Assembly: GCA_021827985.1 (NCBI GenBank)
Contig: JAKATL010000007.1
Location: 13,764 to 77,763 of the forward strand
Length of the DNA stretch: 64,000 bases
Direction of reading: 5' to 3'
Source: a bacterium
Lineage (GTDB): Bacteria; Chloroflexota; Dormibacteria; Aeolococcales; Bog-877
Shown: positions 1 to 44,839 of the stretch, in pieces
Position numbering within the stretch: position 1 is the stretch's first letter
Layout of the letters: the number at the start of each line of letters is the position of its first letter
The notes under the pieces: generated by a model
What the model saw: the letters and a program-made list of their open reading frames with translations, nothing else
The model's database searches: none
Told to the model about the DNA's origin: nothing
Position numbers and translations under genes: made by a program

Positions 1-147
1 GGTGAAGCCGCCGCCCACGATGGCGAAGTCGGCGGAGACGTTCCCCTCCAGGGGCGGCCGCGCCGATCCGGCCGGCCGCGAAAGCCAATAGCTGGGCTTT
101 GTCAGCCGTCCCCAGGCCCGATCCGGATCCTCGACTTCCATCTCCAT
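1..147 (-). CDS. FAD-dependent oxidoreductase, N-terminal fragment; gene continues beyond the window start
   Basis: Reverse-strand translation of nt 1-147 gives MEMEVEDPDRAWGRLTKPSYWLSRPAGSARPPLEGNVSADFAIVGGGFT. The ADFAIVGGGFTG segment is a dinucleotide-binding Rossmann GxGxxG motif. The frame is open to the window edge, so it is not in the ORF track. Confidence 0.4.
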   Translation of the reverse strand, partial: MEMEVEDPDRAWGRLTKPSYWLSRPAGSARPPLEGNVSADFAIVGGGFT

Positions 148-288
148 CTCCCACCCACCTCCGGGGACCCCATCACTTACCGCCGGCTGGGCCCGCCCTC
201 ACCGCCCATCTTGAGATCCGGATGGCGGCGCCGCAAGGCCCTGGAGCCCCTCCGCGAGCCCACGGGTGTCTATACTCTCCCGAGCGCC

Positions 289-2716: not shown

Positions 2717-3532
2717 TCACCCGGGTGTGGCCGACTCGGCGAGGGGGGCGGCGGCGAGCTGCAGCTGCAATTCGGCCGGCCGGAAGCCGAGCTCCTGGTA
2801 TAGGCATACGGCCGGCCCACTCGGATCCGCCACGATCACCAGGCGTCGCGCCGCAAGGTGGGTGGCGGCGTGGCGGGACGCTGCCACCAGGACGGCGCTG
2901 GCGAGTCCCTGGCGGCGGTGATTCGGATGGGTCTGCACGTGCTGGAAGCGGGCGGTGCCGCCCGTTCCGCCTACGATCCCGCATCCGGAGACCAGCTCTC
3001 CCTTCCGGAAGGCACCGAAGAAGGCGGCGCGACCGGTGGCTTCCAACCGCCGAAAGTCCGCCTGCCGGGCGGCCTGGAACTCGGGACCGCCCTCGCCAGA
3101 CCAGCAGGCCGCCGTGAGGCGCCGCTGTCTGTCCCAGTCGTCCTCGCCGGCCAGCCGCCGCACGACGGTGGCGGCCGGAGGGCGCCGGGGGGAGGAGAGC
3201 CTCTCGGCCAGCAGGGCCCGGTCCACGGTCAGCTCCAACCCGGCTCGGATCATGGGCTGAAGGCGGCCCGCCCCGCGGTCCGAGCCACGGTCCCATCCAA
3301 TCGCCACATGCAAGGCTCCCGGGAAGGCCTCGCGGAAGGTCTGGAGCCACCGGGAAGCGTCCTCCACCGGCGCCGTGCCGGAAAGGAGGATGAAGTTGCC
3401 CCAGTAGAAATATGGGTTGTGGGGCGCGCGCACCACCAGGTGGTCCTCGCCGTCCTCCACCTTGGCTCCGGCCAGGCGCAGGACCATGAGGTCGGTGCGG
3501 AACGCCAGTGTCCGGGCTTGCACCGGCGCCAC
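2717..3532 (-). CDS. GNAT family N-acetyltransferase
   Basis: The acetyl-CoA-binding motif RRQGLASAVLVAASRHAATHLAARRLVIVADPSGPAVCLYQELGF (Q/RxxGxG/A) lies in the C-terminal half. Confidence 0.7.
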   Translation of the reverse strand: MAPVQARTLAFRTDLMVLRLAGAKVEDGEDHLVVRAPHNPYFYWGNFILLSGTAPVEDASRWLQTFREAFPGALHVAIGWDRGSDRGAGRLQPMIRAGLELTVDRALLAERLSSPRRPPAATVVRRLAGEDDWDRQRRLTAACWSGEGGPEFQAARQADFRRLEATGRAAFFGAFRKGELVSGCGIVGGTGGTARFQHVQTHPNHRRQGLASAVLVAASRHAATHLAARRLVIVADPSGPAVCLYQELGFRPAELQLQLAAAPLAESATPG

Positions 3533-3735
3533 GGTACCACCCGCGGGCGAGGCGCCCGCCCAGCCAATCCTCAGGATGACCCGCTAGCCTGGCAGCAGCC
3601 ATTCCCAGCGGGGCGGACGGATGTCGGCGGAGCACCTCGGCCGGCGCCGGTCCACCTGCCTCAAGCCGCACAACCTTCGCCCGGGGATACCCGCCTCCCC
3701 GGCCTGATGAGAGCCCGCCCCGGCCCGGAGTCCAG

Positions 3736-16133: not shown

Positions 16134-18143
16134 ATGACGGACGTCTCACCAACGCCCGGGTCCCCGCCCGGCGGCGACGCGGAGGCAACTCCACCCTCCG
16201 GAGTGGCGCGAATGATCGCGGATGCCCGCCTGGTTCCACCTGCGCCTGGCCAACGGCGACCGGCTCAGTTCGCCTCGGCCGCGGACTACCTGACCTACAT
16301 GGACGCGGCACGCCGGGACCCCGACGGCTACTGGGCCGGCGTGGCCCTGGAACTCGACTGGTTCAGCCCCTGGCAGACGCTCCGCGAGGGCACCCTCCCG
16401 GACTTCCGCTACTACGTTGGCGGCTGCGCCAACGTCAGCCACAACTGCCTGGACCGGCATGTGGCGGGGGGCCGAAGCAACAAGGCGGCGATCATCTGGG
16501 AGGGCGAGGATGGGGCGGAGCGGGTCCTCACCTACCAGATGCTCCTCGACGAGGTGAGCCGGTTCGCCAATGTCCTCGCAGATCTGGGTGTCCGGCGAGG
16601 CGATGTCGTGGCCATCTACATGTCGAACATCCCCGAGGTGTTCGCGGCGGTGCACGCCTGCTACCGGCTGGGCGCCGTCTACACCGTCATCTTCGCCGGC
16701 TTCAGCGCCGAAGCGGTGGGCCAGCGGCTTCGCGACTGCCGGCCCAAGGTCGTGGTGGTGGCCGACGGCAGCCAGCGGCGCGGGCGGGTGCTGCCCCTGA
16801 AGGCCACACTCGACGACGCTCTGGGCAAGGCGGCGGACTTCGTCGAGCATGTTGTCGTCGTGCGGCACACCGGCGCGGAGGTGGCGATGCACCCCGACCG
16901 CGACCGGTGGTACCACGAGCTGATGTCCGAGGCTGCGCCCACCCGGGTCCCGGAGGCCATGGAGGCCAACGAGCCTGGCTTCATCATCTACACGAGCGGC
17001 ACCGAGGCCCGCCCCAAGGGCGTGGTCCACTCCGGGTTGGGGTTCCTGGTCGGTACCTACGCCAACGTCAAGTGGTCGCTGGACCTGCGCGACGACGACG
17101 TCTACTGGTGCACGGCCGACGTGGGCTGGCTCACCTTCCCGATCTTCGCCCTGGTCGGCGGCCTGGCCCACGGGGCCACCCTGGTGGTGTACGAGGGGTC
17201 GCTGGACTTCCCCGGTCCGGATCGCTTCTACGACATTGTCGCCCGCCACCGGGTCAATAAGGTCTTCACCGCCCCCACCGCTCTGCGCATGCTGCGCCGC
17301 TTCGGCACCGAGGCCCTGCGGGGCCACGACCTCAGCCGCCTGGAACTGATCTCCCTGGTTGGCGAGCCCCTGGACCCCGAGACCTGGTACTGGGTCCGAG
17401 ACAACGTCGGCGGCGGGTCGGTCTGCATCAACAACACCTACGGTCAGACCGAGACCGCCACCGCTTGGACGTCTTCGGTGGTCGGGGTCACGGCAGGCAA
17501 GCCTGGGTCGTGCGGCCAGCCACTGCCCGGGTACGCCAGCCGTGTGCTGGACGCCGAGGGCCACGAGGTGCCACCCGGTCAGCCGGGATATCTCGTCATC
17601 ACCGAGCCGTTCCCCTCGTTGATGCGCACCGTCTGGGGCGACCACAATCGCTACCTCAGCACCTATTTCAGCCGCTTCCCCGGCACCTACTTCACCGCTG
17701 ACACCTGCGTGGTCGACCGCGATGGGCACTACTGGGTCATCGGCCGGGTGGATGACGTCATCAACGTGGCCGGTCACCGTCTCTCCACGATGGAGATGGA
17801 AGCGGCCTTGCTCAACCACCCCCTGGTTTCCGAGGCGGCTGTCATCGGCGTCGACGACCCGCTGAAGGGACTCCTGCCCGTGGCGTTCGTCGTCCTTCGC
17901 GGCGGAGCGGAGAACCGTTCTGACATGGAGTCAGAACTCAGCGAGCAGATTGTGGTTGCCATAGGCGGCATGGCCCGACCGGGCCGGGTCTACGTGGTCC
18001 CAGCCCTGCCCAAGACCCGCAGCGGCAAGATCATGCGGCGTCTGCTGCGCGAGATTCTCTCCACCGGCGAGGCCCGCGGGGACACCTCGGCGCTGGAGAA
18101 CGCGGACTCGATCAAGGTGCTTCTGGAACTGGTGCGGACGTGA
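16134..18143 (+). CDS. acs: acetyl-CoA synthetase (AMP-forming acetate-CoA ligase)
   Basis: Full-length ANL-superfamily enzyme with an Acs-specific N-terminus (YLTYMDAARRDPDGYWAGVALELDWFSPW). The AMP-binding motif is YTSGTEARPKGVVHS. Other conserved blocks are YWCTADVGWLTF, TYGQTETA and the C-terminal PKTRSGKIMRRLLR. Confidence 0.9.
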   Translation: MTDVSPTPGSPPGGDAEATPPSGVARMIADARLVPPAPGQRRPAQFASAADYLTYMDAARRDPDGYWAGVALELDWFSPWQTLREGTLPDFRYYVGGCANVSHNCLDRHVAGGRSNKAAIIWEGEDGAERVLTYQMLLDEVSRFANVLADLGVRRGDVVAIYMSNIPEVFAAVHACYRLGAVYTVIFAGFSAEAVGQRLRDCRPKVVVVADGSQRRGRVLPLKATLDDALGKAADFVEHVVVVRHTGAEVAMHPDRDRWYHELMSEAAPTRVPEAMEANEPGFIIYTSGTEARPKGVVHSGLGFLVGTYANVKWSLDLRDDDVYWCTADVGWLTFPIFALVGGLAHGATLVVYEGSLDFPGPDRFYDIVARHRVNKVFTAPTALRMLRRFGTEALRGHDLSRLELISLVGEPLDPETWYWVRDNVGGGSVCINNTYGQTETATAWTSSVVGVTAGKPGSCGQPLPGYASRVLDAEGHEVPPGQPGYLVITEPFPSLMRTVWGDHNRYLSTYFSRFPGTYFTADTCVVDRDGHYWVIGRVDDVINVAGHRLSTMEMEAALLNHPLVSEAAVIGVDDPLKGLLPVAFVVLRGGAENRSDMESELSEQIVVAIGGMARPGRVYVVPALPKTRSGKIMRRLLREILSTGEARGDTSALENADSIKVLLELVRT

Positions 18144-34263: not shown

Positions 34264-35103
34264 GTGAGCCCTGGTGCGGGCGGCGTCGATCTTCACGTCC
34301 ACAGTGAGTGGTCGTGGGATGCCCCCGGGGGGTCGATGCGGGAGACCTGCGTTCGTGCCCAGAGTCTGGGCCTGCAGGTGGTCGCCTTCACCGACCACGC
34401 CGACCACACCGCCATCGCCGGTGGCCGCCACCTCGACCTCGCTGGCTACCGCGAAAGCCTCGCTCGGTGCCGCCGGGCGTTTCCCCGGCTGGCCATCTGG
34501 AGCGGCGCGGAGCTGGGGGAGCCGCACCGCTTCCCGGTGGAGACGGCGGAGCTGCTGGCTCAGGGGGACTTCGACCTGGTTCTGGGATCCGTGCACGCCA
34601 TCGAGGTCGGGGGCCGGCTCGAGGATTGCAGCATGGGGCCGGGCGGACAGGGGAGCGACCCGGTGGCCTGGATGAGGCTCTACTGGGGCGAGACCCTGCG
34701 CCTGCTGGAGTCCGCCGGTTCATTCCAGGTTCTGGCCCATCTGGAGTACCCCAAGCGATACTGGCCATCTGGCGGGCAGCCGTACCGGGCCGCCGACTAC
34801 CGAGAGGAGATCCAGACGGTGCTGGAGCAGGCAGCGCGCTGCGAGCTGATCCTGGAGATCAACAGCAGCGCAGGTTTGGAGCCGGAGCGGGGGCTGTGCC
34901 CTGGACCGGAGGTCGTTCGCTGGTGGCGTGCCGCCGGTGGCCGCGCCGTGTCGGTGGGGAGCGACGCGCACCGGCCCGGTGCCGTCGGAAGGGGCCTGGA
35001 TCGGGCGCTGGAGGCGGCGGCCTGGGCTGGGTTCACCTCCGGCCAGATTCTGGGCGGCACCCTCGCCGCCCGCCCCTTAAGTCTCGACGGCCCTCCGTGG
35101 TGA
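34264..35103 (+). CDS. hisJ: PHP-family histidinol-phosphatase
   Basis: The PHP domain metal-binding motifs are present (VDLHVHSEWSWD, VVAFTDHADH, LVLGSVHAIE, VLAHLEYP, VSVGSDAHRPGAVG). GTG start. It lies between hisA and the class-III aminotransferase. Confidence 0.8.
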   Translation: MSPGAGGVDLHVHSEWSWDAPGGSMRETCVRAQSLGLQVVAFTDHADHTAIAGGRHLDLAGYRESLARCRRAFPRLAIWSGAELGEPHRFPVETAELLAQGDFDLVLGSVHAIEVGGRLEDCSMGPGGQGSDPVAWMRLYWGETLRLLESAGSFQVLAHLEYPKRYWPSGGQPYRAADYREEIQTVLEQAARCELILEINSSAGLEPERGLCPGPEVVRWWRAAGGRAVSVGSDAHRPGAVGRGLDRALEAAAWAGFTSGQILGGTLAARPLSLDGPPW

Positions 35104-36290
35104 GCGAGCTTGAGGCTCGGGCACGCGCCGTCCTGTGCGACAGCTATGCGCGTCTTCCCGTGACGCTGGAGCGGGGAGACGGGGTCTGGGTGTTCACCGA
35201 CTCCGGAGAGCGACTCCTGGACGCGGTCGGGGGCATCGCGGTCAACGTGCTGGGGCACGGAAATACACGGCTGGTGGAGGCGGTGGCGGCGCAAGCCCGG
35301 GCGATGATCCACGCCAGCAACCTGTACTACACCCGGCCCCAGGTGGAGCTGGCAGAGCGGTTGGTGGCCACCGCCTTTCCCTCCCGGGTCTTCTTCAGCA
35401 ACAGCGGAGCGGAGGCAAACGAGGCGGCCATCAAGATAGCCCGCAAGTGGGGGCACCTCCGGAAGGACGGGGCCACCGAGATCGTCACTCTCAGCGGGGC
35501 ATTCCACGGCCGCACCCTCGGTGCCCTGGCGGCGACCGGGTCGGCGCGCTACAGCCAGTTCTTCCAGCCTCTGCCCGGGGGGTTCCAGCAGGTGCCACGA
35601 GGAGATCTCGCCGCCCTGGAGGCGGCGCTCGGGGACACCACGGCGGCGGTGATGCTGGAGCCGGTGCAGGGGGAGAGCGGAGTCTTTGCCCTCCCGCTCG
35701 ATCACCTTCGGGCCATCCGCGACCTCTGCGACCGGCACCACTGCCTCCTGGTGGTGGACGAGATCCAGTCAGGTATGGGTCGGACCGGAAGGATGTGGGC
35801 CCACCAGTGGGCGGGGGTGACACCCGACATCATGACGGTGGCCAAGGGGCTGGCCGGGGGGCTGCCGATCGGGGCCACTCTGGTGGGCGCCCGGGCGGAT
35901 GTTCTCGAGCCCGGTGATCACGGCAGCACCTTCGGTGGCAACCCGCTGGCATGCGCGGCAGGGATTGCCGTCCTCGACACGATCTCGGAGCAGAACCTGG
36001 TGGCCAACGCAGCCACGGTGGGGGACCGGCTGCGGGCCGGGATCGCCGCCCTGGAGGACGCTGGGCGTCCCATCCTCGAGGTCCGGGGTCTGGGCCTCAT
36101 GCTCGGGGTGGGGCTGCGCCGGCCCATCGCCCGGGCGGTGGCGACCGCGGCTCTCCAGGGTGGCCTCCTTCTCAACCCGATCGGGCAGCGGACCCTCCGG
36201 CTCCTGCCGGCGCTCACCCTCGGCGCAGCCGAGGCCGACCTTGTGGTCGAGCGGTTGGACCGGGCGCTTCTGGCGGTGGCGGCTCGATGA
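35100..36290 (+). CDS. class-III (acetylornithine/LysW-gamma-aminoadipate semialdehyde) aminotransferase, ArgD/LysJ-like
   Basis: PLP-dependent class-III signatures are present (NSGAEANEAAIKIARKW, LLVVDEIQSGMGRTGRMWAHQW, the lysine in DIMTVAKGLAGGLPIGA, GSTFGGNPLACAA). The GTG start overlaps the hisJ stop (GTGA). The real start is 264 codons inside the listed ORF 34308..36290. Confidence 0.85.
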   Translation: MSELEARARAVLCDSYARLPVTLERGDGVWVFTDSGERLLDAVGGIAVNVLGHGNTRLVEAVAAQARAMIHASNLYYTRPQVELAERLVATAFPSRVFFSNSGAEANEAAIKIARKWGHLRKDGATEIVTLSGAFHGRTLGALAATGSARYSQFFQPLPGGFQQVPRGDLAALEAALGDTTAAVMLEPVQGESGVFALPLDHLRAIRDLCDRHHCLLVVDEIQSGMGRTGRMWAHQWAGVTPDIMTVAKGLAGGLPIGATLVGARADVLEPGDHGSTFGGNPLACAAGIAVLDTISEQNLVANAATVGDRLRAGIAALEDAGRPILEVRGLGLMLGVGLRRPIARAVATAALQGGLLLNPIGQRTLRLLPALTLGAAEADLVVERLDRALLAVAAR

Positions 36291-36379
36291 GAGGCGGGCC
36301 GCACTGCCGCGGCCGCCAGGTGGCCGCCCCGCCTCCAGGGCCGGTGGCAGGCGTCCGAAGAAGCCCTTGCCTGGCGCTC

Positions 36380-36700
36380 ACCAGCCTGATAGACTCTCGT
36401 CCCACAACTGAATACCAAAGGCATTGACGAGGACGAGTAGGAAGGTCCAGCCCCCTCAAGAGAGCGGCCGGTAGCTGGAAAAGCCGCAGCGGGGCCCCTG
36501 CCGAAAAAGACCTCCGAGCCGCGGGAAGAAACCGGCACCCAGCCGGGAGTAGAACCCGCCGGCGGCCCCGCCGTTACCGGGGCAGGGTGTGATGGCACCC
36601 GGTGAGGCTGGTGCTGCGAGGCACTGGCGAAGAGAGGTGGTACCGCGTGGTCGGAGCCCCAGGGCTTGGCCCCGCCCTCTCGGACGGCCGCTAGAAGGCT
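36380..36700 (+). ncRNA. T-box riboswitch-like leader upstream of the homocitrate synthase/lysine cluster
   Basis: The sequence GAAGAGAGGTGGTACCGCGTGG (36629-36650) contains the invariant T-box core GGTGGTACCGCG with the UGGU bulge. An F-box CCGTTA sits at 36571-36576. Upstream is a stem (CTCGTCC...GGACGAG) with an A-rich loop containing AAAG, and a GC-rich hairpin follows the T-box. The ORF-free region is 447 nt. Confidence 0.5.
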
Positions 36701-36737
36701 GTCCGGAGCGGCGTGGCCTGAGGGCCTGGAGGCGGAG

Positions 36738-37898
<1,161 letters not shown>

Positions 37899-37900
37899 CC

Positions 37901-39136
37901 GTGGGCACTCTGATGGAGGAGATCATCGCCGCCCATCTGGGCCGATCCGTGGTGGCGGGGGATACGGTGGTGGTGCCGGTGGACCTTGTGATGAGCCACG
38001 ACACCACCACTCCCCTCGTGGCCGACCAGCTCGCGCGGCTGGGTCGGGGGGTCAAGCACCCCGAGCGCGCGGTGGTGGTCCTGGACCATGTGACCCCAGC
38101 GGCGACGGTGGCGGCCGCCCAGCAGCACCAGCGTTGTAGAGAGTTCGTGGCCGGGCAGCGGATCGGGAGCCTGCTCAGTGACGGCATCTGCCACCAGGTC
38201 CTGCCCGAGCACGGATTGGTGGCTCCCGGTGACATCGTGGTCGGTGCCGACAGCCACACCGTGACGCTCGGTGCCCTGGGAGCGCTGGCAACCGGCATGG
38301 GGTCCACGGATATCGCGGTCGCCTATGCCACCGGCGAGACCTGGCTGCGGGTCCCGGCCACGATCCAGGTCCGGCTGGAGGGCTCGCTGCAGCCGCCTGT
38401 GTCCGCCAAGGACCTGGTCCTCGAGCTGGTGCGCCGCCTCGGCAGCGACGGCGCCCGCTACCAAGCCATCGAGTACACGGGCCCGGGGGCGGCTTCGCTG
38501 CCGATGGGGGACCGCATGACCCTCAGCAACATGGCGGTGGAGATGGGCGCCAAGGCGGGCATCTTCGCCGCCGATGAGGTCACCCTGCGCTGGCTTGACG
38601 GTCGCTCCGACCGGCCGTGCAGGGTTGTGACCGCACGGGACCCCGGGTACTCGCGTTCGGAGGGGATCTCCCTCACCGCCCTGGAGCCGATGGTGGCGCC
38701 ACCCCCTGCGGTGGACAGCGCGCGGCCCGTGCGCGAGCTGGCCGGGCTCGCCGTGGACCAGGTCTTCATCGGGACCTGCACGAATGGCCGCCTGGCCGAC
38801 CTTGCGGTGGCTGCCACCCTGCTGCGGGGTCGCCAGGTGGCGGTGCGGACGGTGGTGGTGCCTGCGTCCCGAGAGGTCTACCTGGAGGCCCTCAGAGCTG
38901 GCTACTTGGAGAGCCTGGTCGCGGCGGGGGTGGCGGTGGAGAGCCCGGGCTGTGGGCCCTGCCTGGGGCGGCACAAGGGGGTGCTCGGCCCCGGGGAACG
39001 GGCGGTCACCACCATGAGCCGGAACTTTCGCGGCCGGATGGGAGACCCCTCCAGTGAGATCTACCTGGTCAGCCCCGCCACAGCCGCCGCCACGGCGTTG
39101 CGGGGGTGCCTGACCGACCCGCGGGAGGTTGTCTGA
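37901..39136 (+). CDS. homoaconitase / 3-isopropylmalate dehydratase large subunit family (aconitase domain)
   Basis: DLVMSHDTT, VVLDHVTPA, GICHQVLPE, VGADSHTVTLGALGALATG, FIGTCTNGRLADL, ESPGCGPCLG and TTMSRNFRGRMG are the Fe-S aconitase-family motifs of the LeuC/HACN type. Confidence 0.85.
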   Translation: MGTLMEEIIAAHLGRSVVAGDTVVVPVDLVMSHDTTTPLVADQLARLGRGVKHPERAVVVLDHVTPAATVAAAQQHQRCREFVAGQRIGSLLSDGICHQVLPEHGLVAPGDIVVGADSHTVTLGALGALATGMGSTDIAVAYATGETWLRVPATIQVRLEGSLQPPVSAKDLVLELVRRLGSDGARYQAIEYTGPGAASLPMGDRMTLSNMAVEMGAKAGIFAADEVTLRWLDGRSDRPCRVVTARDPGYSRSEGISLTALEPMVAPPPAVDSARPVRELAGLAVDQVFIGTCTNGRLADLAVAATLLRGRQVAVRTVVVPASREVYLEALRAGYLESLVAAGVAVESPGCGPCLGRHKGVLGPGERAVTTMSRNFRGRMGDPSSEIYLVSPATAAATALRGCLTDPREVV

Positions 39137-39687
39137 TGGCGCGAGTGTGGCGCTTCGGCGATTCAGTGAACACGGACCAGATCATTCCCGGCCGCTACAA
39201 CCTGACCACCGACTGGGCGGCCCTGGGCCGGGCCTGCTTTGTGGAGCTTCGTCCCGACTTCACCTCCGGGGTCCGCCCCGGCGACGTGATCGTGGCCGGA
39301 GAGGACTTTGGATGCGGCAGCTCGCGAGAGCACGCCGTCATCGCCCTGCAGGCGGCTGGTGTGGGGGCCGTGGTCGCCCCCAGCTACGCCCGCATCTTCT
39401 ACCGCAACGCCATCAATCGCGGGCTGACCCTGCTCGAGTGCTCCGACCTCGGTTCCCTGGCAGACGGCGCCGAGGTTGAGCTGGACCGCATCAGCGGCGT
39501 TCTGCGGGAGGCCAGCACCGGTCGGGAGTGGCGGGCCCGGCCACTGCCCGAGTTCGCCCAGCGGATCGCCAGGCACGGGGGCGTCCTGGAGCTGGTCCAA
39601 GCCCACGGCGGTCTGCGGGGCGAGTGCGGGCCCGACTGTGGCTCCGGCCTCGCCCCGGTCCCAGGAGGTGAGTCCGATGTCCGATGA
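39136..39687 (+). CDS. homoaconitase / 3-isopropylmalate dehydratase small subunit family
   Basis: MARVWRFGDSVNTDQIIPGRY...VIVAGEDFGCGSSREHAVIAL...AVVAPSYARIFYRNAINRGL. ATGA overlap with the large subunit. Confidence 0.85.
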   Translation: MARVWRFGDSVNTDQIIPGRYNLTTDWAALGRACFVELRPDFTSGVRPGDVIVAGEDFGCGSSREHAVIALQAAGVGAVVAPSYARIFYRNAINRGLTLLECSDLGSLADGAEVELDRISGVLREASTGREWRARPLPEFAQRIARHGGVLELVQAHGGLRGECGPDCGSGLAPVPGGESDVR

Positions 39688-39865
39688 CCTCAACCCGCAG
39701 GCTGGCGAGTGCCCCGAATGCGCCGCCGTCTTCGTGCTGCCCACAGGTACTGTCGTGGGCGAGATCCTCCCCTGCCCGGACTGCGCGGCCGAGCTGGAGG
39801 TGGTCGCACTCGACCCTCCTAGGCTGGCTCTGGCCCCGGAGATAGAGGAGGACTGGGGGGAGTGA
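39677..39865 (+). CDS. lysW: amino-group carrier protein LysW (62 aa)
   Basis: MSDDLNPQAGECPECAAVFVLPTGTVVGEILPCPDCAAELEVVALDPPRLALAPEIEEDWGE has a CPEC...CPDC zinc ribbon and the invariant C-terminal EDWGE. A strong AGGAGGTG RBS precedes it. Confidence 0.9.
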   Translation: MSDDLNPQAGECPECAAVFVLPTGTVVGEILPCPDCAAELEVVALDPPRLALAPEIEEDWGE

Positions 39866-40743
39866 GTGCGCTGCGTTTCGGACTGGTGTGCTCGCGGGTG
39901 AGGGTCGAGGAGAAGCTTCTTCTGGAGGCGCTGGCCCGGCATGTGGGGCTGGAGGTGGTCCAGTTCGACGATGAGCTGTTCGAGGCGCCCTTGGTGGGGG
40001 GGAGGCCGCTCTCTGGCCCGCTGGCGGCTCTGAGCGGATGCGACGTCGTCCTGCTCCGCTCTCTCAGCCATGCCCGCCAGGTGACCATGGCGCGGGTACT
40101 CGAGGCCTGGGGCGTCCCGACCGTCAACCGGGCCGACGTCCTGGAGACCTGCGGGGACAAGGTCCGCACCACGCTGGCTCTGGTGGCCGCCGGGGTCCCC
40201 ACCCCCCCGACCAGGGTGGCGTTCACCGTGGAGGCGGCACTGGCGGCGGTTGAGGCGCTGGGCTACCCCTGCGTTGTCAAGCCAGTGACCGGATCCTGGG
40301 GGAGACTGGTGGGTCGCCTCAACGACCGCGACGCGGCCGAGTCGGTCCTGGAGCACAAGTCGCTGCTCGGAGGGGCATTACATCGAGTGGCGTACCTCCA
40401 GGCGCACATCGACAAACCGGGTCGGGACCTGCGTGCCTTTGTGATCGGAGGGCGCACCGCGGCGGTGATCGGACGGCGGTCATCGCACTGGGTCACCAAC
40501 ACCGCCCGGGGGGCGGTCGCGGAGGCCGTCCCCGTGTCCGACGAGCTCGACCACATGTGCCGCCGTGCGGCCGCAGCGGTGGGTGGTGGGGCCTTGGCGG
40601 TGGACCTTCTGGAGAGTCGCGATGGGCTCCTGGTCAATGAGGTGAACGGCACCATGGAATTCCGCAACAGCGTGGCTCCAACCGGAGTCGACATTCCTGG
40701 CCTGCTGGTGGCGCACGCGCTGGACGTGGCGGGGGGCGGGTGA
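39862..40743 (+). CDS. lysX: LysX, RimK-type ATP-grasp ligase (alpha-aminoadipate-LysW ligase)
   Basis: ATP-grasp pattern GYPCVVKPVTGSWGRLV...VAYLQAHIDKPGRDLRAFVIGGR...GGGALAVDLLESRDGLLVNEVNGTMEF. GTG start in a GTGA overlap with the lysW stop. Confidence 0.9.
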   Translation: MSALRFGLVCSRVRVEEKLLLEALARHVGLEVVQFDDELFEAPLVGGRPLSGPLAALSGCDVVLLRSLSHARQVTMARVLEAWGVPTVNRADVLETCGDKVRTTLALVAAGVPTPPTRVAFTVEAALAAVEALGYPCVVKPVTGSWGRLVGRLNDRDAAESVLEHKSLLGGALHRVAYLQAHIDKPGRDLRAFVIGGRTAAVIGRRSSHWVTNTARGAVAEAVPVSDELDHMCRRAAAAVGGGALAVDLLESRDGLLVNEVNGTMEFRNSVAPTGVDIPGLLVAHALDVAGGG

Positions 40744-41780
40744 TGCGCGTGAGCGTGGTGGGTGGCGCGGGATATGTCGGGGGGGAGCTGGTCCGCTATC
40801 TCCTTGGGCACCCGGGACTGGAGCTGGCCCAGGTGACATCGTCGTCCCTGCCGGGCCGGCCCGTCACCATGGTCCATCCCAATCTGCGGGGCTTCACCTC
40901 CATGCGGTTCGTCGCACCCGATCAGTTACGGCCGTGCGACGCCGTGGTCGTGGCTGGAGGCGAGGGCCCGGCGCAGGTGCCGTCCCTGAGTGAGCTGCGA
41001 GCGGTTGCCCCGCTGGTCGTGGACTGTGGGCCCCGCCTTCGCCTGCGCGACCCGGATGCCTTTCGGGCGTGGTACCGGAGCGAGCCGGAGCCCCCCGAGG
41101 TCCTCCGGGAAGCCGTCTATGGGCTTCCCGAGCTGGGGCGCGCAGAGATCCTCGGCTCGAGCCTCGTCAGCGGGGTGGGCTGCTCGGCGGCGGCCGCGAT
41201 CCTGGCGCTGCTCCCCGTGGCCCGCGCGGGTTGGAAGTTGACCGCGCCCGCCTGCGTCGAGGCCAGGTTCGGGTCGTCAGCCGCCGGGTCTCGGCCGGAT
41301 CTGTCCACCCATCATCCGGAGCGTTCCGGAGCGCTCCGGGTGTTTGCCCCGGATCACCACCGGCACGCCGCCGAGGTCGCCCAGGCACTTGGTTGGGAGG
41401 CAAGCCGCCTCAGCTACGCCGGGATGGGGGTGGAGATGGTCCGCGGAATCTCGGTTTCCATCCGCTGCTTTCTCGCCGACCCGGTTCCCGAGAAGGACCT
41501 CTGGGACGCCTTCCGGTCCACCTATCGAGACGAGCCCTTCGTCCGGGTGGTAGCCCAGAGGGCGGGCCTGCACCGCCACCCGGACCCCCGGTGGCTGGCG
41601 GGCACCAACCTGTGCGACGTCGGCTTCTGGCTGGACCGTTCCGGCCTCCGCCTGAGCCTCTTCGCCGCCCTGGACAACCTGGGCAAGGGATCGGCGGGCA
41701 ACGCGGTCCAGGCCCTCAACTGCGCGTTGGGGATGGACGAACGGTTGGGACTGACGTTCATGGGGCTGCACCCTCTGTGA
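40743..41780 (+). CDS. lysY: LysY/ArgC-family [LysW]-aminoadipyl-phosphate reductase (N-acetyl-gamma-glutamyl-phosphate reductase homolog)
   Basis: MRVSVVGGAGYVGGELVRYLLGHPGLEL shows the NAD(P) Rossmann pattern, VSGVGCSAAAAILAL the catalytic Cys, and ALDNLGKGSAGNAVQALN the ArgC C-terminus. Confidence 0.9.
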   Translation: MRVSVVGGAGYVGGELVRYLLGHPGLELAQVTSSSLPGRPVTMVHPNLRGFTSMRFVAPDQLRPCDAVVVAGGEGPAQVPSLSELRAVAPLVVDCGPRLRLRDPDAFRAWYRSEPEPPEVLREAVYGLPELGRAEILGSSLVSGVGCSAAAAILALLPVARAGWKLTAPACVEARFGSSAAGSRPDLSTHHPERSGALRVFAPDHHRHAAEVAQALGWEASRLSYAGMGVEMVRGISVSIRCFLADPVPEKDLWDAFRSTYRDEPFVRVVAQRAGLHRHPDPRWLAGTNLCDVGFWLDRSGLRLSLFAALDNLGKGSAGNAVQALNCALGMDERLGLTFMGLHPL

Positions 41781-41820
41781 GCTTCGGGTGCCGGAATCCA
41801 GCTGGCCGAGGGACGATCCG

Positions 41821-42651
41821 ATGCTGGTGGTGAAGGTGGGCGGAGGTCAATCCATAGCTTGGGACGAGGTGTGCGCCGACCTGGCCAGGCGATGGCGCCA
41901 GGAGCCGGTGGTGCTGCTGCACGGGGCCTCCAAGGAGCTGGATCAGATCTCGGCACGCCTCGGGCAGCCCCCCAGGCACGTGCGTTCCGCGTCGGGAATC
42001 GAGAGCCGCTTCACCGATGACGCGACCATGGAGATCTTCACGATGGTCTACGCCGGCAGCGCCAATGTGCGGGTGGTGGCGCGCCTGCTGGCCCACGGAG
42101 TCGTGGCTCTGGGGCTGAGCGGGGTCGACGGGGCTGTGCTCCGGGGGCCCGAAAAGGGAGTCCTGAGGACGCGCGACGAGGATGGCCGGCAGCGCGTGGT
42201 CCGCGGTGACCGCACCGGCGTGGTCAGTGAGGTGAACTCTTCCCTGCTCCGGCTGCTGCTGGACGGCGGCTACATGCCCGTCCTCTGCCCCCCGGCCCTC
42301 TCCGACCAGGGCCGGCCCATGAACGTCGACGGGGACAGGGCCGCGGCCAGGGTGGCGTGCGCTCTCGGGGCGGACACCCTGGTGTTGCTCAGCGACGTGC
42401 CGGGGCTGCTGCGAGACCCCGACGACGAAGGCTCGTTGGTGGCGGAGTTCCGCCGCCACGAGATCGGGCGGGCCATGGAGATGGCCCGAGGGAGGATGCG
42501 GTTGAAGGTGCTGGCGGCCCGGGAGGCATTGCAGGGCGGGGTCCGCCGCGTCGTCCTCGCCGACGGGCGGAAGGCCCGACCCGTGTCGAGGGCCTGTCGC
42601 GGCGAGGGGACGGTGTTCCGCCGCTCCGGGGCGCCCCGGTCGCGGGAGTGA
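41821..42651 (+). CDS. lysZ: LysZ/ArgB-family [LysW]-aminoadipate kinase (acetylglutamate kinase homolog)
   Basis: MLVVKVGGG, VVLLHGAS, GGYMPVLCPPALSDQGRPMNVDGDRAAARVACALGADTLVLLSDVPGLL match the amino-acid kinase family. The start is at the ATG after a GAGGGA RBS. Confidence 0.85.
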   Translation: MLVVKVGGGQSIAWDEVCADLARRWRQEPVVLLHGASKELDQISARLGQPPRHVRSASGIESRFTDDATMEIFTMVYAGSANVRVVARLLAHGVVALGLSGVDGAVLRGPEKGVLRTRDEDGRQRVVRGDRTGVVSEVNSSLLRLLLDGGYMPVLCPPALSDQGRPMNVDGDRAAARVACALGADTLVLLSDVPGLLRDPDDEGSLVAEFRRHEIGRAMEMARGRMRLKVLAAREALQGGVRRVVLADGRKARPVSRACRGEGTVFRRSGAPRSRE

Positions 42652-43766
42652 ACTTGTCCCCGGCACGGGCCGGTCTTGCCGGGCCGTTGGTCCCAGCTGG
42701 GGGACCCAGTGGCGCGGAGGTTGCCCTGCTCCGGGGCCTGGTCGCGGTGCCCAGCCCGTCCGGGGAGGAGCGCCCCGCGGCCGACTGGCTGCTGGCCCGG
42801 CTGGGGGAGATGGGCGTCGCGGCGCACCTGGACCAGGTGGGAAATGTCATTGCCGCGGTGGATCCGACTGCCGGGTCGGGTGCGAGCCAGGGCCCGATCT
42901 ACCTTCTTGGCCACATCGACACAGTGGCCGGGTTCTGGGAGCCGAGGGAGTCAGGGGGCACGCTCTGGGGTCGTGGGAGCTCGGACGCGAAGGGGCCCCT
43001 GTGCGCCTTCGTGGCGGCCGCGGTGCGGGCCAGGGAAAGCCGCCGGCTGCGCCGGCGGGTCCTGATTCTCGGCGCCGTGGAGGAGGAGACCACCTCGCGC
43101 GGGGCCCGTCACCTGGCAGCGTCCCTGCCGCCGCCGGCCTTCCTGGTGGTGGGGGAACCCTCAGGGTCCGGTCGCGTCGTGGTGGGCTACATGGGCAGCC
43201 TCAGGTGCCGGCTGGAGGTCAGTCGCGGCGTCGCCCACACCTCTGGCCCCCATCCGACCGCTGCCGAACTTGCCATCGAGACCTGGTCGTCGGTGCGCCG
43301 GCTGGTCGACCGTCTGAACTCGGGGCGCAGGGGATTCGGGGCGGTCCAGCTCCACCTCCTGGGCTTCGACACCGTCTCTGATGGGCTGATGGAGACCGCC
43401 GCCTTGAACCTGAGCTTCAGGCTACCCGTCGGCCTTCCCTGCCAGCAGATGCTTCTCCACCTCCGCCGGCTCCATCCGCGCGCCAGCTGGCGCGCGGATG
43501 GCGGGGAAGACGCGGTCGTGGTGCCGCGCCGCGGGCCGCTGCCGGCCGCCTTTGCACAGGCGATCAGAGCCGCGGGGGGTGACCCCGGGTGGCAGCACCG
43601 CCTGGCGACCTCGGACCTCAACGTGGTCATGCCGACCTGGCGCTGCCCTGCGGTGGTCTACGGCCCCGGCGACTCCCGCTCCGATCACACGCCGGCAGAG
43701 GCGATCACCCTCTCCGACTACGGGCGAGCCATCGGGGTCCTCACCTCGGTCCTGGGCTCGCTGTGA
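42648..43766 (+). CDS. lysK: LysK/ArgE-family M20 metallohydrolase ([LysW]-lysine hydrolase)
   Basis: LLGHIDTVAG, GRGSSDAKGPLCAFVAA, GAVEEETTS and VVGEPSG are the M20 His/Asp/Glu metal ligands. The GTG start overlaps the lysZ stop. The listed ORF 42357.. is a spurious 5' extension. Confidence 0.8.
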   Translation: MNLSPARAGLAGPLVPAGGPSGAEVALLRGLVAVPSPSGEERPAADWLLARLGEMGVAAHLDQVGNVIAAVDPTAGSGASQGPIYLLGHIDTVAGFWEPRESGGTLWGRGSSDAKGPLCAFVAAAVRARESRRLRRRVLILGAVEEETTSRGARHLAASLPPPAFLVVGEPSGSGRVVVGYMGSLRCRLEVSRGVAHTSGPHPTAAELAIETWSSVRRLVDRLNSGRRGFGAVQLHLLGFDTVSDGLMETAALNLSFRLPVGLPCQQMLLHLRRLHPRASWRADGGEDAVVVPRRGPLPAAFAQAIRAAGGDPGWQHRLATSDLNVVMPTWRCPAVVYGPGDSRSDHTPAEAITLSDYGRAIGVLTSVLGSL

Positions 43767-43801
43767 GGAGGTCCGCCCACGACGGCCGGGCACGGCAGCT
43801 G

Positions 43802-44839
43802 ATGGTGCTGGCGGGAGACGGGATCGGACCAGAGGTGGTGGGCGCCGCCCTCGAAGTTCTTGACGTTCTCCGGGAGCGGCTGCCCTGGCCGGTGGAGGTC
43901 CACCAGGCCCCTCTCGGGCGGGCCGCCCTCAGAGCCTACGGGGAGACGGCGCCCGCGCATGTGCTCAGGGAGGCGCGCCGAGCGGACGCGGTGCTGGTCG
44001 GCGCGGTGGACACCGTGGGAGCGGTGGCGGACGGCGCCAGTGGACCTTCGGCCATCCTGGTGTTGCGCCGGGCCCTTGGTTGTCACGCGGCCTTGCGGCC
44101 CGTGCGAGGCTGGCCGGGGGTGGCCCACGCCTCGCCGATCCGCACCAGGGCAAGCACCCAGCTCGACCTTCTCTTCGTGCGCGACCTGAGGGGCGGAGCC
44201 TTCGCCGGGCCCCACCGGCGGACCTCCCTTGCGGTCGGGGGAAGGGCCGCCACGGACCGGATGGCCTACACCGAGTCGCAGGTCCGCCGGGTGGCCCAGG
44301 CGGCATTCGCGTGCGCGGGGCAGCGCCGTGGCCAGCTCACCTCCGTTGAGTATGGCCCCGGCTTGGCCACCGGGGCTCTCTGGACAGCGGTGCTGGGTGA
44401 GGTGGCCGTCCAGCATCCGCAGGTCGGATTCCAGCGCATGCGGATCGGGGACTTCTGGCGCCTGCTCCTGCGCCGGCCCCAGGACTTCGACGTGGTGGTG
44501 ACCGAGAATCTGCTTGGTGACATTCTGAGCGATGCGGCTGCGGCCCTGGCCGGGTCGCTGGGGCTGATGCCCTCTGCGAGCCTGGGGCCGCCAGACCGCC
44601 CGGCTCTGTACGAGCCCGTGCATGGCGCCGCGCCACAGCTTGCGGGACAGGGGTCAGCCAATCCATTGGGGGCGATTCTGAGCTTGGCCATGCTCCTCGC
44701 TGACTGGGGCCGGGACGAGGCCGCTGCCGCCATAGAGGTAGCGGTTGCCGCCGCCTTGCGAGCCGGGGTCGCCACCCCCGACATCGGCGGAAGCGCCACC
44801 ACCGCCTCCATGACGGCCAGTGTGCTGGAGCGCCTCTGA
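43802..44839 (+). CDS. homoisocitrate/isocitrate/isopropylmalate dehydrogenase-family enzyme (HICDH in this context)
   Basis: MVLAGDGIGPEVV is the N-terminal motif. VVVTENLLGDILSDAAAALAGSLGLMPSASLG and LYEPVHGAAPQLAGQGSANPLGAILSLAMLL are the beta-decarboxylating dehydrogenase signature. Confidence 0.8.
   Translation: MVLAGDGIGPEVVGAALEVLDVLRERLPWPVEVHQAPLGRAALRAYGETAPAHVLREARRADAVLVGAVDTVGAVADGASGPSAILVLRRALGCHAALRPVRGWPGVAHASPIRTRASTQLDLLFVRDLRGGAFAGPHRRTSLAVGGRAATDRMAYTESQVRRVAQAAFACAGQRRGQLTSVEYGPGLATGALWTAVLGEVAVQHPQVGFQRMRIGDFWRLLLRRPQDFDVVVTENLLGDILSDAAAALAGSLGLMPSASLGPPDRPALYEPVHGAAPQLAGQGSANPLGAILSLAMLLADWGRDEAAAAIEVAVAAALRAGVATPDIGGSATTASMTASVLERL

Follow-up and report, generated by a model that had tools for sequence, protein, structure and literature searches.

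How is lysine biosynthesis controlled in a bacterium whose lysine operon follows a long leader free of open reading frames (ORFs)? The leader in question precedes homocitrate synthase, the first gene of a complete LysW-mediated alpha-aminoadipate lysine operon at 36738..44839 on the forward (+) strand of a 64,000-nucleotide stretch of Dormibacteria contig JAKATL010000007.1 (hereafter the window). An earlier note on this DNA had placed a T-box sensing tRNA-Lys in front of the operon, and this proposal was borne out by a covariance-model match, by the recurrence of the leader in 22 related loci, by covariation, by an invariant Lys codon and by the annotation of the operon itself. The best overall explanation of our results, to which we assign a probability of about 0.7, is that the leader of approximately 335 nt is a tRNA-Lys T-box with an output that sequesters the Shine-Dalgarno (SD) sequence. 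The parts of this explanation differ in strength: the leader is almost certainly a T-box riboswitch, its codon and target operon make specificity for Lys very probable, and the modelled folds point to translation, rather than termination, as the probable output.

The whole window was searched for the T-box core GGTGGTACCGCG and scanned with 4227 Rfam families. The T-box model RF00230 aligned over its full length (model positions 1-219) to 36415-36682 (+) with a score of 58.3 bits, giving E=3.6e-12 in a local scan and E=4.2e-10 when the 64-kb window was compared with all of the families. This was the sole RNA-family match at E <= 0.01 within the window, and it includes the Stem I and specifier architecture that the earlier note had wished to see recovered by this model. 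When the same scan was carried out at gathering thresholds, no RNA family was reported for the window, the T-box included. The gathering score of RF00230 in Rfam release 15 is 93 bits, which is a curated cut-off without meaning as a structural feature, and the shortfall of the leader is accompanied by a GC content of about 69% (the bias term of cmscan is 20.9 bits) and by three insertions.

A single exact copy of the core is present in the window at 36636-36647, one nucleotide away from the coordinates previously given for it (36635-36646), whereas the F-box CCGTTA (36571-36576, 65 nt 5' of the core) and the ORF-free gap of 447 nt between the upstream stop codon at 36290 and the ATG at 36738 were found as described. 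With up to one mismatch allowed, three copies of the core occur in the window against 0.6 expected. The two one-mismatch copies (GGTGGTACCGTG and GGTGGTACCACG, at 3530-3541 on the minus strand and 16906-16917 on the plus strand) are probably chance matches inside coding sequence, since neither of them falls in any T-box according to the window-wide E-value scan.

The elements that contact the tRNA in known T-boxes are all recognizable in the alignment to the model. The distal loop GGUAGCUGGAAA and the AGAGA bulge of Stem I align to the conserved RF00230 positions of the elbow platform. The specifier loop has the AGUA/GAA S-turn with the codon followed by a purine, and its lower helix stands above the GA/K-turn motif. 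The T-box sequence itself (AGAGAGG-UGGUACC-GCG, 36631-47) carries a 7-nt bulge that starts with UGGN.

Related loci were gathered from genomes, from metagenomes and, by way of protein homologs, from assemblies, with homocitrate synthase as the query. The same leader was found upstream of this gene in 22 of them, 20 of which belong to the Candidatus Dormibacteria clade; in L001, L002, L081, L082 and all 16 of the loci L161-L176 it lies directly 5' of the synthase. The closest relatives are metagenome-assembled genomes (MAGs) of Candidatus Dormiibacterota/Dormibacteria, with 57-76% identity in homocitrate synthase. The two remaining loci, the metagenome contigs L133 and L137, have a diverged leader and a synthase with 53-54% identity to that of the window and 77-80% to its counterpart in a Ktedonobacterales MAG. 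The gene upstream of the leader differs between loci (the aminotransferase, a PHP-domain protein and others), which indicates that the leader travels with the lysine operon.

The RF00230 scores of the relatives are 66.5 bits for L001, 71.1 for L082, 75.3 for L081, 84.2 for L137 and 102.5 for L133, so that only L133 passes the gathering score among the leaders scored. Every Dormibacteria leader scored (58-75 bits) is thus missed at this cut-off despite E-values of 1e-10 to 1e-15. About 150 other loci, searched over the 2.5-3 kb 5' of homocitrate synthase by regular expression, nhmmer, Rfam (on six loci) and a Stem I covariance model, yielded no such leader; these loci include Ktedonobacteria, Deinococcales, Anaerolineae, Phycisphaerae, cyanobacteria and the distant Dormibacterota L056, L063 and L076, and in some of them (e.g. 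L030) the operon does not begin with the synthase. L030, a Ktedonobacterales MAG that is nearest to L133 and L137 among the named relatives, has homocitrate synthase immediately 3' of a LysK-like gene (region 1650-2200). The gene order of its alpha-aminoadipate cluster therefore differs, and any leader there would sit further upstream. In L082 a match to RF00029 (group II intron catalytic domain) was observed at 119-212 (+), about 2 kb 5' of the T-box, with 50.1 bits against a gathering score of 40.

Covariation was assessed in an alignment of 18 close leaders, for which the full T-box structure including the pseudoknot was written out and its pairs counted, with 500 column shuffles and six slid copies of the structure as controls. 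The T-box fold comprises 86 pairs, of which 96.8% are paired across the alignment. A total of 29 compensatory pairs was found as compared to 11.9+-2.5 in the shuffles (none of the 500 reached 29) and at most 9 in the slid controls. RNAalifold, without guidance, arrived at the ON fold with Stem I, Stem II, one arm of the IIA/B element, an extra hairpin, Stem III and an antiterminator with its 7-nt bulge.

Compensatory changes are distributed over the whole element. Stem II and Stem III are the most variable, followed by upper Stem I; eight of the ten pairs in Stem II and six of the nine in Stem III are compensatory, with 96.7% of the cells paired in the latter. With L133 and L137 included, Stem I shows compensatory changes in 14 of its 22 pairs as compared to 5.9+-1.6 in shuffles (0/500), and every one of its helices is touched. 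The helices flanking the specifier loop show no variation within the close clade, whereas in L133 and L137 they change in step, GAGG/CCUC being replaced by GGGG/CCCC in the lower helix and G-C by A-U in the base helix. The antiterminator helices (12-14) are 94-100% paired with five compensatory pairs, and in L133 and L137 both A1 and A2 have exchanged a G-C for an A-U pair in step. The extra hairpin at 36585-36600 is invariant in all 18 leaders and is retained in L133 and L137 with a compensatory change of G-C to A-U (GAGUGU...GCACUC).

The register of the codon was taken from the RF00230 alignment, in which the 3' side of the specifier loop has eight unpaired nucleotides; positions 5-7 hold the codon and position 8 the purine. 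The window has G-A-A-A-A-A-G-A here, and the codon is AAG. All of the 18 close leaders and both of the distant ones have AAG in the codon slot (20/20 full leaders), while the spacer before it varies (A, U in L082 or G in L133) and the trailing purine is A or G (L133). A conserved Lys codon together with a LysW-type lysine operon downstream places the leader in the Lys-specific subclass. The host itself uses AAG for 23 and AAA for one of the Lys codons in ten genes of the pathway (35103-36290 and 36738-44839); with these 24 Lys codons among about 3070 codons, the enzymes of the pathway are very poor in lysine.

The specifier had been sought elsewhere by the earlier note, as AAA within an AAAG in the loop of a stem CTCGTCC/GGACGAG. 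This did not hold, as the actual codon is the AAG at 36507-09 in the canonical Stem I loop. The stem does exist in the window, where its arms (36396-36402 and 36431-36437) are perfectly complementary, but only two to five of its seven pairs can form in 14 relatives. It was rejected as the specifier stem on the grounds that it is unconserved and that its 5' arm falls on the predicted start of transcription.

The GC-rich hairpin that had been noticed downstream of the core is present at about 36656-36733, but it has no U-tract and covers the SD and the start codon, so that it is not a classical terminator. The window and the 17 close leaders all lack a U-tract after the hairpin, and the terminator scan found no terminator-like site on the plus strand. 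When the alternatives were folded, as had been suggested earlier, two mutually exclusive structures were obtained. The free fold of 36626-36750 is one long hairpin of -71.8 kcal/mol, compared with -54.2 kcal/mol when the antiterminator is enforced, and the two compete for 36673-81, which is the 3' strand of the antiterminator. In the free ensemble four of the five SD bases, as well as the A and U of AUG, are paired with a probability of about 1. The mean unpaired probability of the SD rises from 0.2 to 0.48 in the window with the antiterminator enforced; in 14 of 16 relatives it goes from about 0.2 to values of 0.43-0.75. The long hairpin of the free fold is likewise the minimum free energy (MFE) structure in 12 of the 18 aligned leaders, its pairs are 94.1% paired as compared to 24-51% in slid controls, and GGAGG or GGAGA occurs at a fixed distance from the ATG in 17 of 17 close leaders. 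An SD and a start codon within an alternative helix, in a leader that lacks an intrinsic terminator, characterize translational T-boxes. With the U-tract missing and both elements covered by the competing hairpin, translational control appears the most likely output.

The 3' strand of Stem I just after the specifier reads CCUCC (36511-36515) and resembles an anti-SD sequence; RNAalifold pairs it with the SD at 36728-36732 in 16-18 of the 18 sequences per pair. This pairing may be a coincidence of the high GC content or may form a second mask on the SD.

The mechanism that we infer from these features would run as follows. Stem I would offer AAG to a tRNA-Lys, whose anticodon is expected to be CUU, while its distal AG bulge and loop stack onto the elbow of the tRNA and the codon-anticodon helix is braced by Stem II and the IIA/B pseudoknot. 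When tRNA-Lys is uncharged, its free ACCA end would pair with UGGU (36638-41) and lock the antiterminator-type helix at 36632-36681, which would free the SD and allow translation of homocitrate synthase, the first enzyme of the pathway. A73, which UGGU predicts at the discriminator position, is the usual discriminator of bacterial tRNA-Lys. When lysine suffices and tRNA-Lys is charged, the antiterminator helix would not be stabilized and its 3' strand would join the hairpin at 36656-36733 and beyond, where pairing of the SD GGAGG and the AUG would block translation of homocitrate synthase. Expression would probably drop as well in the genes downstream, which are tightly coupled.

Several observations weigh against this interpretation. 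The leader, at 58.3 bits, lies below the Rfam gathering score of 93 and is therefore not a member of the family by that measure. No tRNA-Lys gene turned up when the window and 19 related loci were searched. The UGGU of the bulge fits A73, but since this base is borne by most tRNAs the match is without discriminating power. With regard to the platform, the SD stays paired in L081 and L172 even with the antiterminator enforced (0.15), and the MFE structure is a different fold in L001, L166 and L168. Covariation in the sequestrator is not above shuffles (2 compensatory pairs, 1.1 expected) because its columns are nearly invariant, and the support for the OFF fold thus comes from thermodynamics and conservation. 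Finally, the OFF state is more stable than the ON state by 17.6 kcal/mol, which is large for a reversible equilibrium switch.

The last two of these points would be easier to accommodate if the same Lys T-box acted through transcription attenuation, with the hairpin at 36656-36733 either halting the polymerase without a U-tract or exposing the transcript to Rho, and with the overlap of the SD being incidental or a second layer of control. An energy gap of this size suits a kinetic, co-transcriptional decision, and the lack of covariation support for the sequestrator also speaks for this alternative. Most known T-boxes act on transcription (PMC7583486), and orthologs with bona fide U-tract terminators at the equivalent position exist. 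In L133 a 13-bp stem is followed by TTTTGTGTTG, L137 is similar and the SD of both lies well 3' of the terminator, while in the Dormibacteria locus L175 the homologous hairpin is followed by TTTTTTGTG with the SD after the U-tract. By sequence, the orthologous leader thus exists with two kinds of platform, an intrinsic terminator (L133, L137, L175) or an SD sequestrator. Within the clade, however, the 3' arm of the hairpin always ends in an SD at a fixed distance from the ATG, whereas the SD in L133 and L137 is clear of the hairpin. Together with the missing T run after the stem, in the window and in the 17 close leaders alike, and the lack of a plus-strand terminator in the scan, this makes attenuation of transcription an unlikely output for the window leader.

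That a shifted register gives the T-box another specificity (e.g. Asn, Arg or Glu), or that the leader is a degenerate remnant with tRNA binding lost, is far less credible. Lys T-boxes can be promiscuous, as the lysK T-box of B. cereus is partly induced by uncharged tRNA-Asn (PMC2916919), and the A-rich loop of the window holds further triplets (AAA, AGA) in a leader that scores under the gathering cut-off. The register of the model nevertheless puts AAG in the codon slot of every ortholog. AAA was excluded because the corresponding triplet would be UAA in the L082 loop GAAUAAGA, and it would be GAA in the L133 loop GAAGAAGG; AGA would be followed by C instead of the conserved purine. The target operon, moreover, makes lysine. 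As for a remnant, the motifs that contact the tRNA are invariant even though the synthases are only 53-76% identical, which argues against decay.

Lastly, control without any tRNA sensor, by an L-box riboswitch or by a leader-peptide attenuator with tandem Lys codons (AAA-AAG, 36504-36509), is barely conceivable: both are known controls of lysine biosynthesis and the GAAAAAGA run can be read as Lys-Lys, but the covariation fits the T-box fold and neither the L-box (RF00168) nor any other Rfam family matched in the window at E <= 0.01 besides the T-box, the L-box being absent from 36250-36800 even at E <= 10. The leader peptide was rejected in its own right, as no plus-strand ORF of at least 20 aa covers 36504-36509. 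The frame of these codons opens after the TAG at 36438-40 with no ATG, GTG or TTG before them, and in L082 they are replaced by AAU-AAG.

The reading of the leader as a tRNA-Lys T-box that sequesters the SD is laid out with its features and those of the operon in Table 1. A promoter-like element lies at the 5' end of the leader. Its cTTGC and TGnTAnnnn motifs, with 17-18 nt between them, are kept in 15 of 15 related leaders while the sequence of the spacer varies, although the element is under the threshold of a strict sigma-70 consensus scan. Its position suggests a transcription start at about 36402-36404, from which the putative leader length of about 335 nt follows.

Table 1. Features of the leader and of the alpha-aminoadipate operon, in window coordinates.
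Feature	Position	Strand	Remarks
Promoter-like element	36367..36395	+	-35 TTGCCT 36367-36372; 17-nt spacer; extended -10 TGaTAGACT (hexamer 36390-36395)
Stem I, tRNA decoding domain	36420..36520	+	Rfam alignment
Stem I base helix GGC/GCC and GA (K-turn) motif	36420-22 with 36518-20	+	Rfam alignment
Stem I lower helix GAGG/CCUC	36429-32 with 36511-14	+	AGUA S-turn on 5' side
Stem I AG bulge AGAGA	36459-63	+	Invariant in 17-18 sequences
Stem I distal helix	36464-68 with 36483-87	+	Distal loop CGGUAGCUGGAAAA, invariant in 17-18 sequences
Specifier loop, 3' side	36503..36510	+	GAA 36503-05; spacer A 36506; AAG 36507-09 (Lys); purine A 36510
Stem II	36521..36559	+	Lower 36521-25 with 36555-59; upper 36532-35 with 36543-46; GAA/AGUA S-turn internal loop
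Stem IIA/B pseudoknot and F-box	36560..36583	+	Rfam alignment gives IIA and F-box
IIA CGG/CCG	36560-62 with 36571-73	+	Invariant
F-box CCGUUA	36571-76	+	CCGUGA in relatives
IIB GCCCC/GGGGC	36565-69 with 36579-83	+	100% paired, 2 compensatory pairs
Extra hairpin GGGUGU-GAUG-GCACCC	36585..36600	+	Between IIA/B and Stem III; inserted with respect to the RF00230 model
Stem III	36607..36628	+	9 bp, 36607-15 with 36620-28; loop GCGA
Antiterminator (predicted anti-sequestrator)	36632..36681	+	Rfam alignment; RNAalifold consensus
Helix A1	36632-37 with 36676-81	+	100% paired
T-box bulge UGGUACC, 7 nt	36638-44	+	UGGU predicted partner of tRNA 3' ACCA
Helix A2	36645-47 with 36673-75	+	94% paired; capped by inserted hairpin 36649-71
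Sequestrator hairpin, predicted OFF state	36656..36733	+	Free MFE fold
Sequestrator 5' arm	36656-36681	+	Reuses A2 cap, A2 3' strand and A1 3' strand
Inner hairpin common to both states	36682-89 with 36697-704	+	
Sequestrator 3' arm	36705-36733	+	Holds SD; outer pairs reach 36738-48 over start codon
Shine-Dalgarno GGAGG and ATG	36728-32 and 36738-40	+	5-nt spacer; homocitrate synthase start
Homocitrate synthase	36738-37898	+	NCBIfam TIGR02146 is best match
Homoaconitase large subunit	37901-39136	+	NCBIfam HacA family above cut-off
Homoaconitase small subunit	ends 39687	+	Operon member
LysW	39677-39865	+	Two CxxC motifs, C-terminal EDWGE; overlaps end of homoaconitase small subunit
LysX	39862-40743	+	NCBIfam above cut-off
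LysY	40740-41780	+	Operon member
LysZ	41788-42651	+	Operon member
LysK	ends 43766	+	Operon member
Homoisocitrate/isopropylmalate-type dehydrogenase	ends 44839	+	Operon member

The genes of the operon appear to form a single transcription unit because of their tight spacing and overlaps. Among the matches that identify them are one to the NCBIfam model of the [LysW]-aminoadipate kinase with 344.6 bits (cut-off 223) and one to that of the [LysW]-lysine hydrolase with 322 bits. A 53-aa ORF at 39684-39845 was rejected as LysW since it is in the wrong frame; LysW lies in the frame of the ORF 39476..39865.

An ArgD/LysJ-like aminotransferase is encoded at about 35100-36290, 5' of the promoter and the T-box, and scores 454 bits with an acetylornithine transaminase model and 263 bits with the LysJ model. 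Because of its position upstream of both elements it falls outside the T-box's control. No further LysJ candidate was observed in the operon. The aminotransferase is also found upstream in L161-L163 and L165-L167, whereas different genes occupy this position in L170-L176.

Lys T-boxes are among the rarest T-box classes, and here one is found on a complete lysine biosynthesis operon. The element is conserved across a Candidatus Dormibacteria clade of uncultured bacteria from soil and permafrost and in at least two Ktedonobacteria-like contigs, and the group of high-GC T-boxes to which it belongs is overlooked at the Rfam gathering score, so that such leaders are left unmarked by standard annotation. 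If our reading is true, the close leaders, which differ mainly in their platform, are material for the question of transcriptional versus translational T-box mechanisms, and they would provide natural matched pairs for the conversion of a kinetic (transcriptional) into an equilibrium (translational) T-box. The T-box family itself is well known; the novelty lies in the pathway under regulation, in the lineage of the host, in a long Stem I joined to a translational platform and in orthologs that differ in platform. Nothing relevant on a T-box in front of homocitrate synthase or LysW, or in Dormibacter, was found in the literature searched, the coverage of which excluded the surveys of Vitreschak et al. 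2008 and Gutierrez-Preciado et al. 2009. The chances are about even that this is the first evidence of a LysW/alpha-aminoadipate pathway governed by the charging of tRNA-Lys and of a platform switch within one orthologous T-box lineage that has kept its long-Stem-I decoding domain.

The job of the leader, lysine feedback through an mRNA leader, is carried out in other bacteria by the L-box (RF00168) and by the attenuator of Thermus, where the regulated cluster is homologous. Tsubouchi et al. are said to have placed the alpha-aminoadipate cluster of Thermus thermophilus under a leader-peptide attenuator (J Biol Chem, 2005). The L-box senses free lysine by means of an aptamer and the Thermus attenuator responds to ribosomes stalling at Lys codons; neither was found in the window leader, which would represent a third RNA-based solution to lysine feedback.

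Among T-boxes, the window leader resembles those of class I, which have a long Stem I and act on transcription (e.g. B. subtilis tyrS and glyQS), in having a complete decoding domain, Stems II and III, the IIA/B element with its F-box, the AGAGAGGUGGUACCGCG T-box whose 7-nt bulge is of the UGGN kind, and a 3' hairpin that excludes the antiterminator. In contrast to class I, it has a GC content of about 69%, the extra invariant hairpin and an insertion capping A2; it lacks a U-tract, its competing hairpin lies over the SD and AUG, and its host belongs to Candidatus Dormibacteria rather than the Firmicutes. T-boxes as such are known from Firmicutes, Actinobacteria, Chloroflexi, Deinococcus-Thermus and some delta-proteobacteria (PMC2916919, PMC3766115).

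Lys-specific T-boxes, with which the leader has its effector class in common, number 170 among the 23,535 entries of TBDB, 148 of them with AAA and 22 with AAG (PMC7778990 supplement). They have been described on lysK or lysS in four species (B. cereus and B. thuringiensis, C. beijerinckii, S. thermophilum), and the lysK element of B. cereus answers to uncharged tRNA-Lys in vivo through antitermination (PMC2916919); a trait of lysine metabolism has been suggested to make T-box control of lysyl-tRNA synthetase unsuitable (PMC2916919). The putative Lys permease BH0807 of B. halodurans also has a Lys T-box (PMC2494555). Whereas these elements control a synthetase or a transporter, the window leader precedes a whole aminoadipate biosynthesis operon, uses AAG and is apparently translational.

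Translational T-boxes are known mostly from the Actinobacteria, where the majority have a shortened Stem I and a few have a long one, and an insertion on helix A2 is typical of them (PMC7583486). The ileS T-boxes of Mycobacterium and Nocardia share with the window leader an SD-sequestrator/anti-sequestrator arrangement, the insertion at the top of A2 and a high-GC host (PMC7583486, PMC11297988). The truncated Stem I, which is typical of this group but does not define it, is not shared, as Stem I in the window is full length with its AG bulge and distal loop. Most of the actinobacterial translational T-boxes combine a truncated Stem I that lacks the elbow platform with recognition of tRNA-Ile, whereas the window leader combines a long Stem I with a predicted specificity for tRNA-Lys in a host related to the Chloroflexota.

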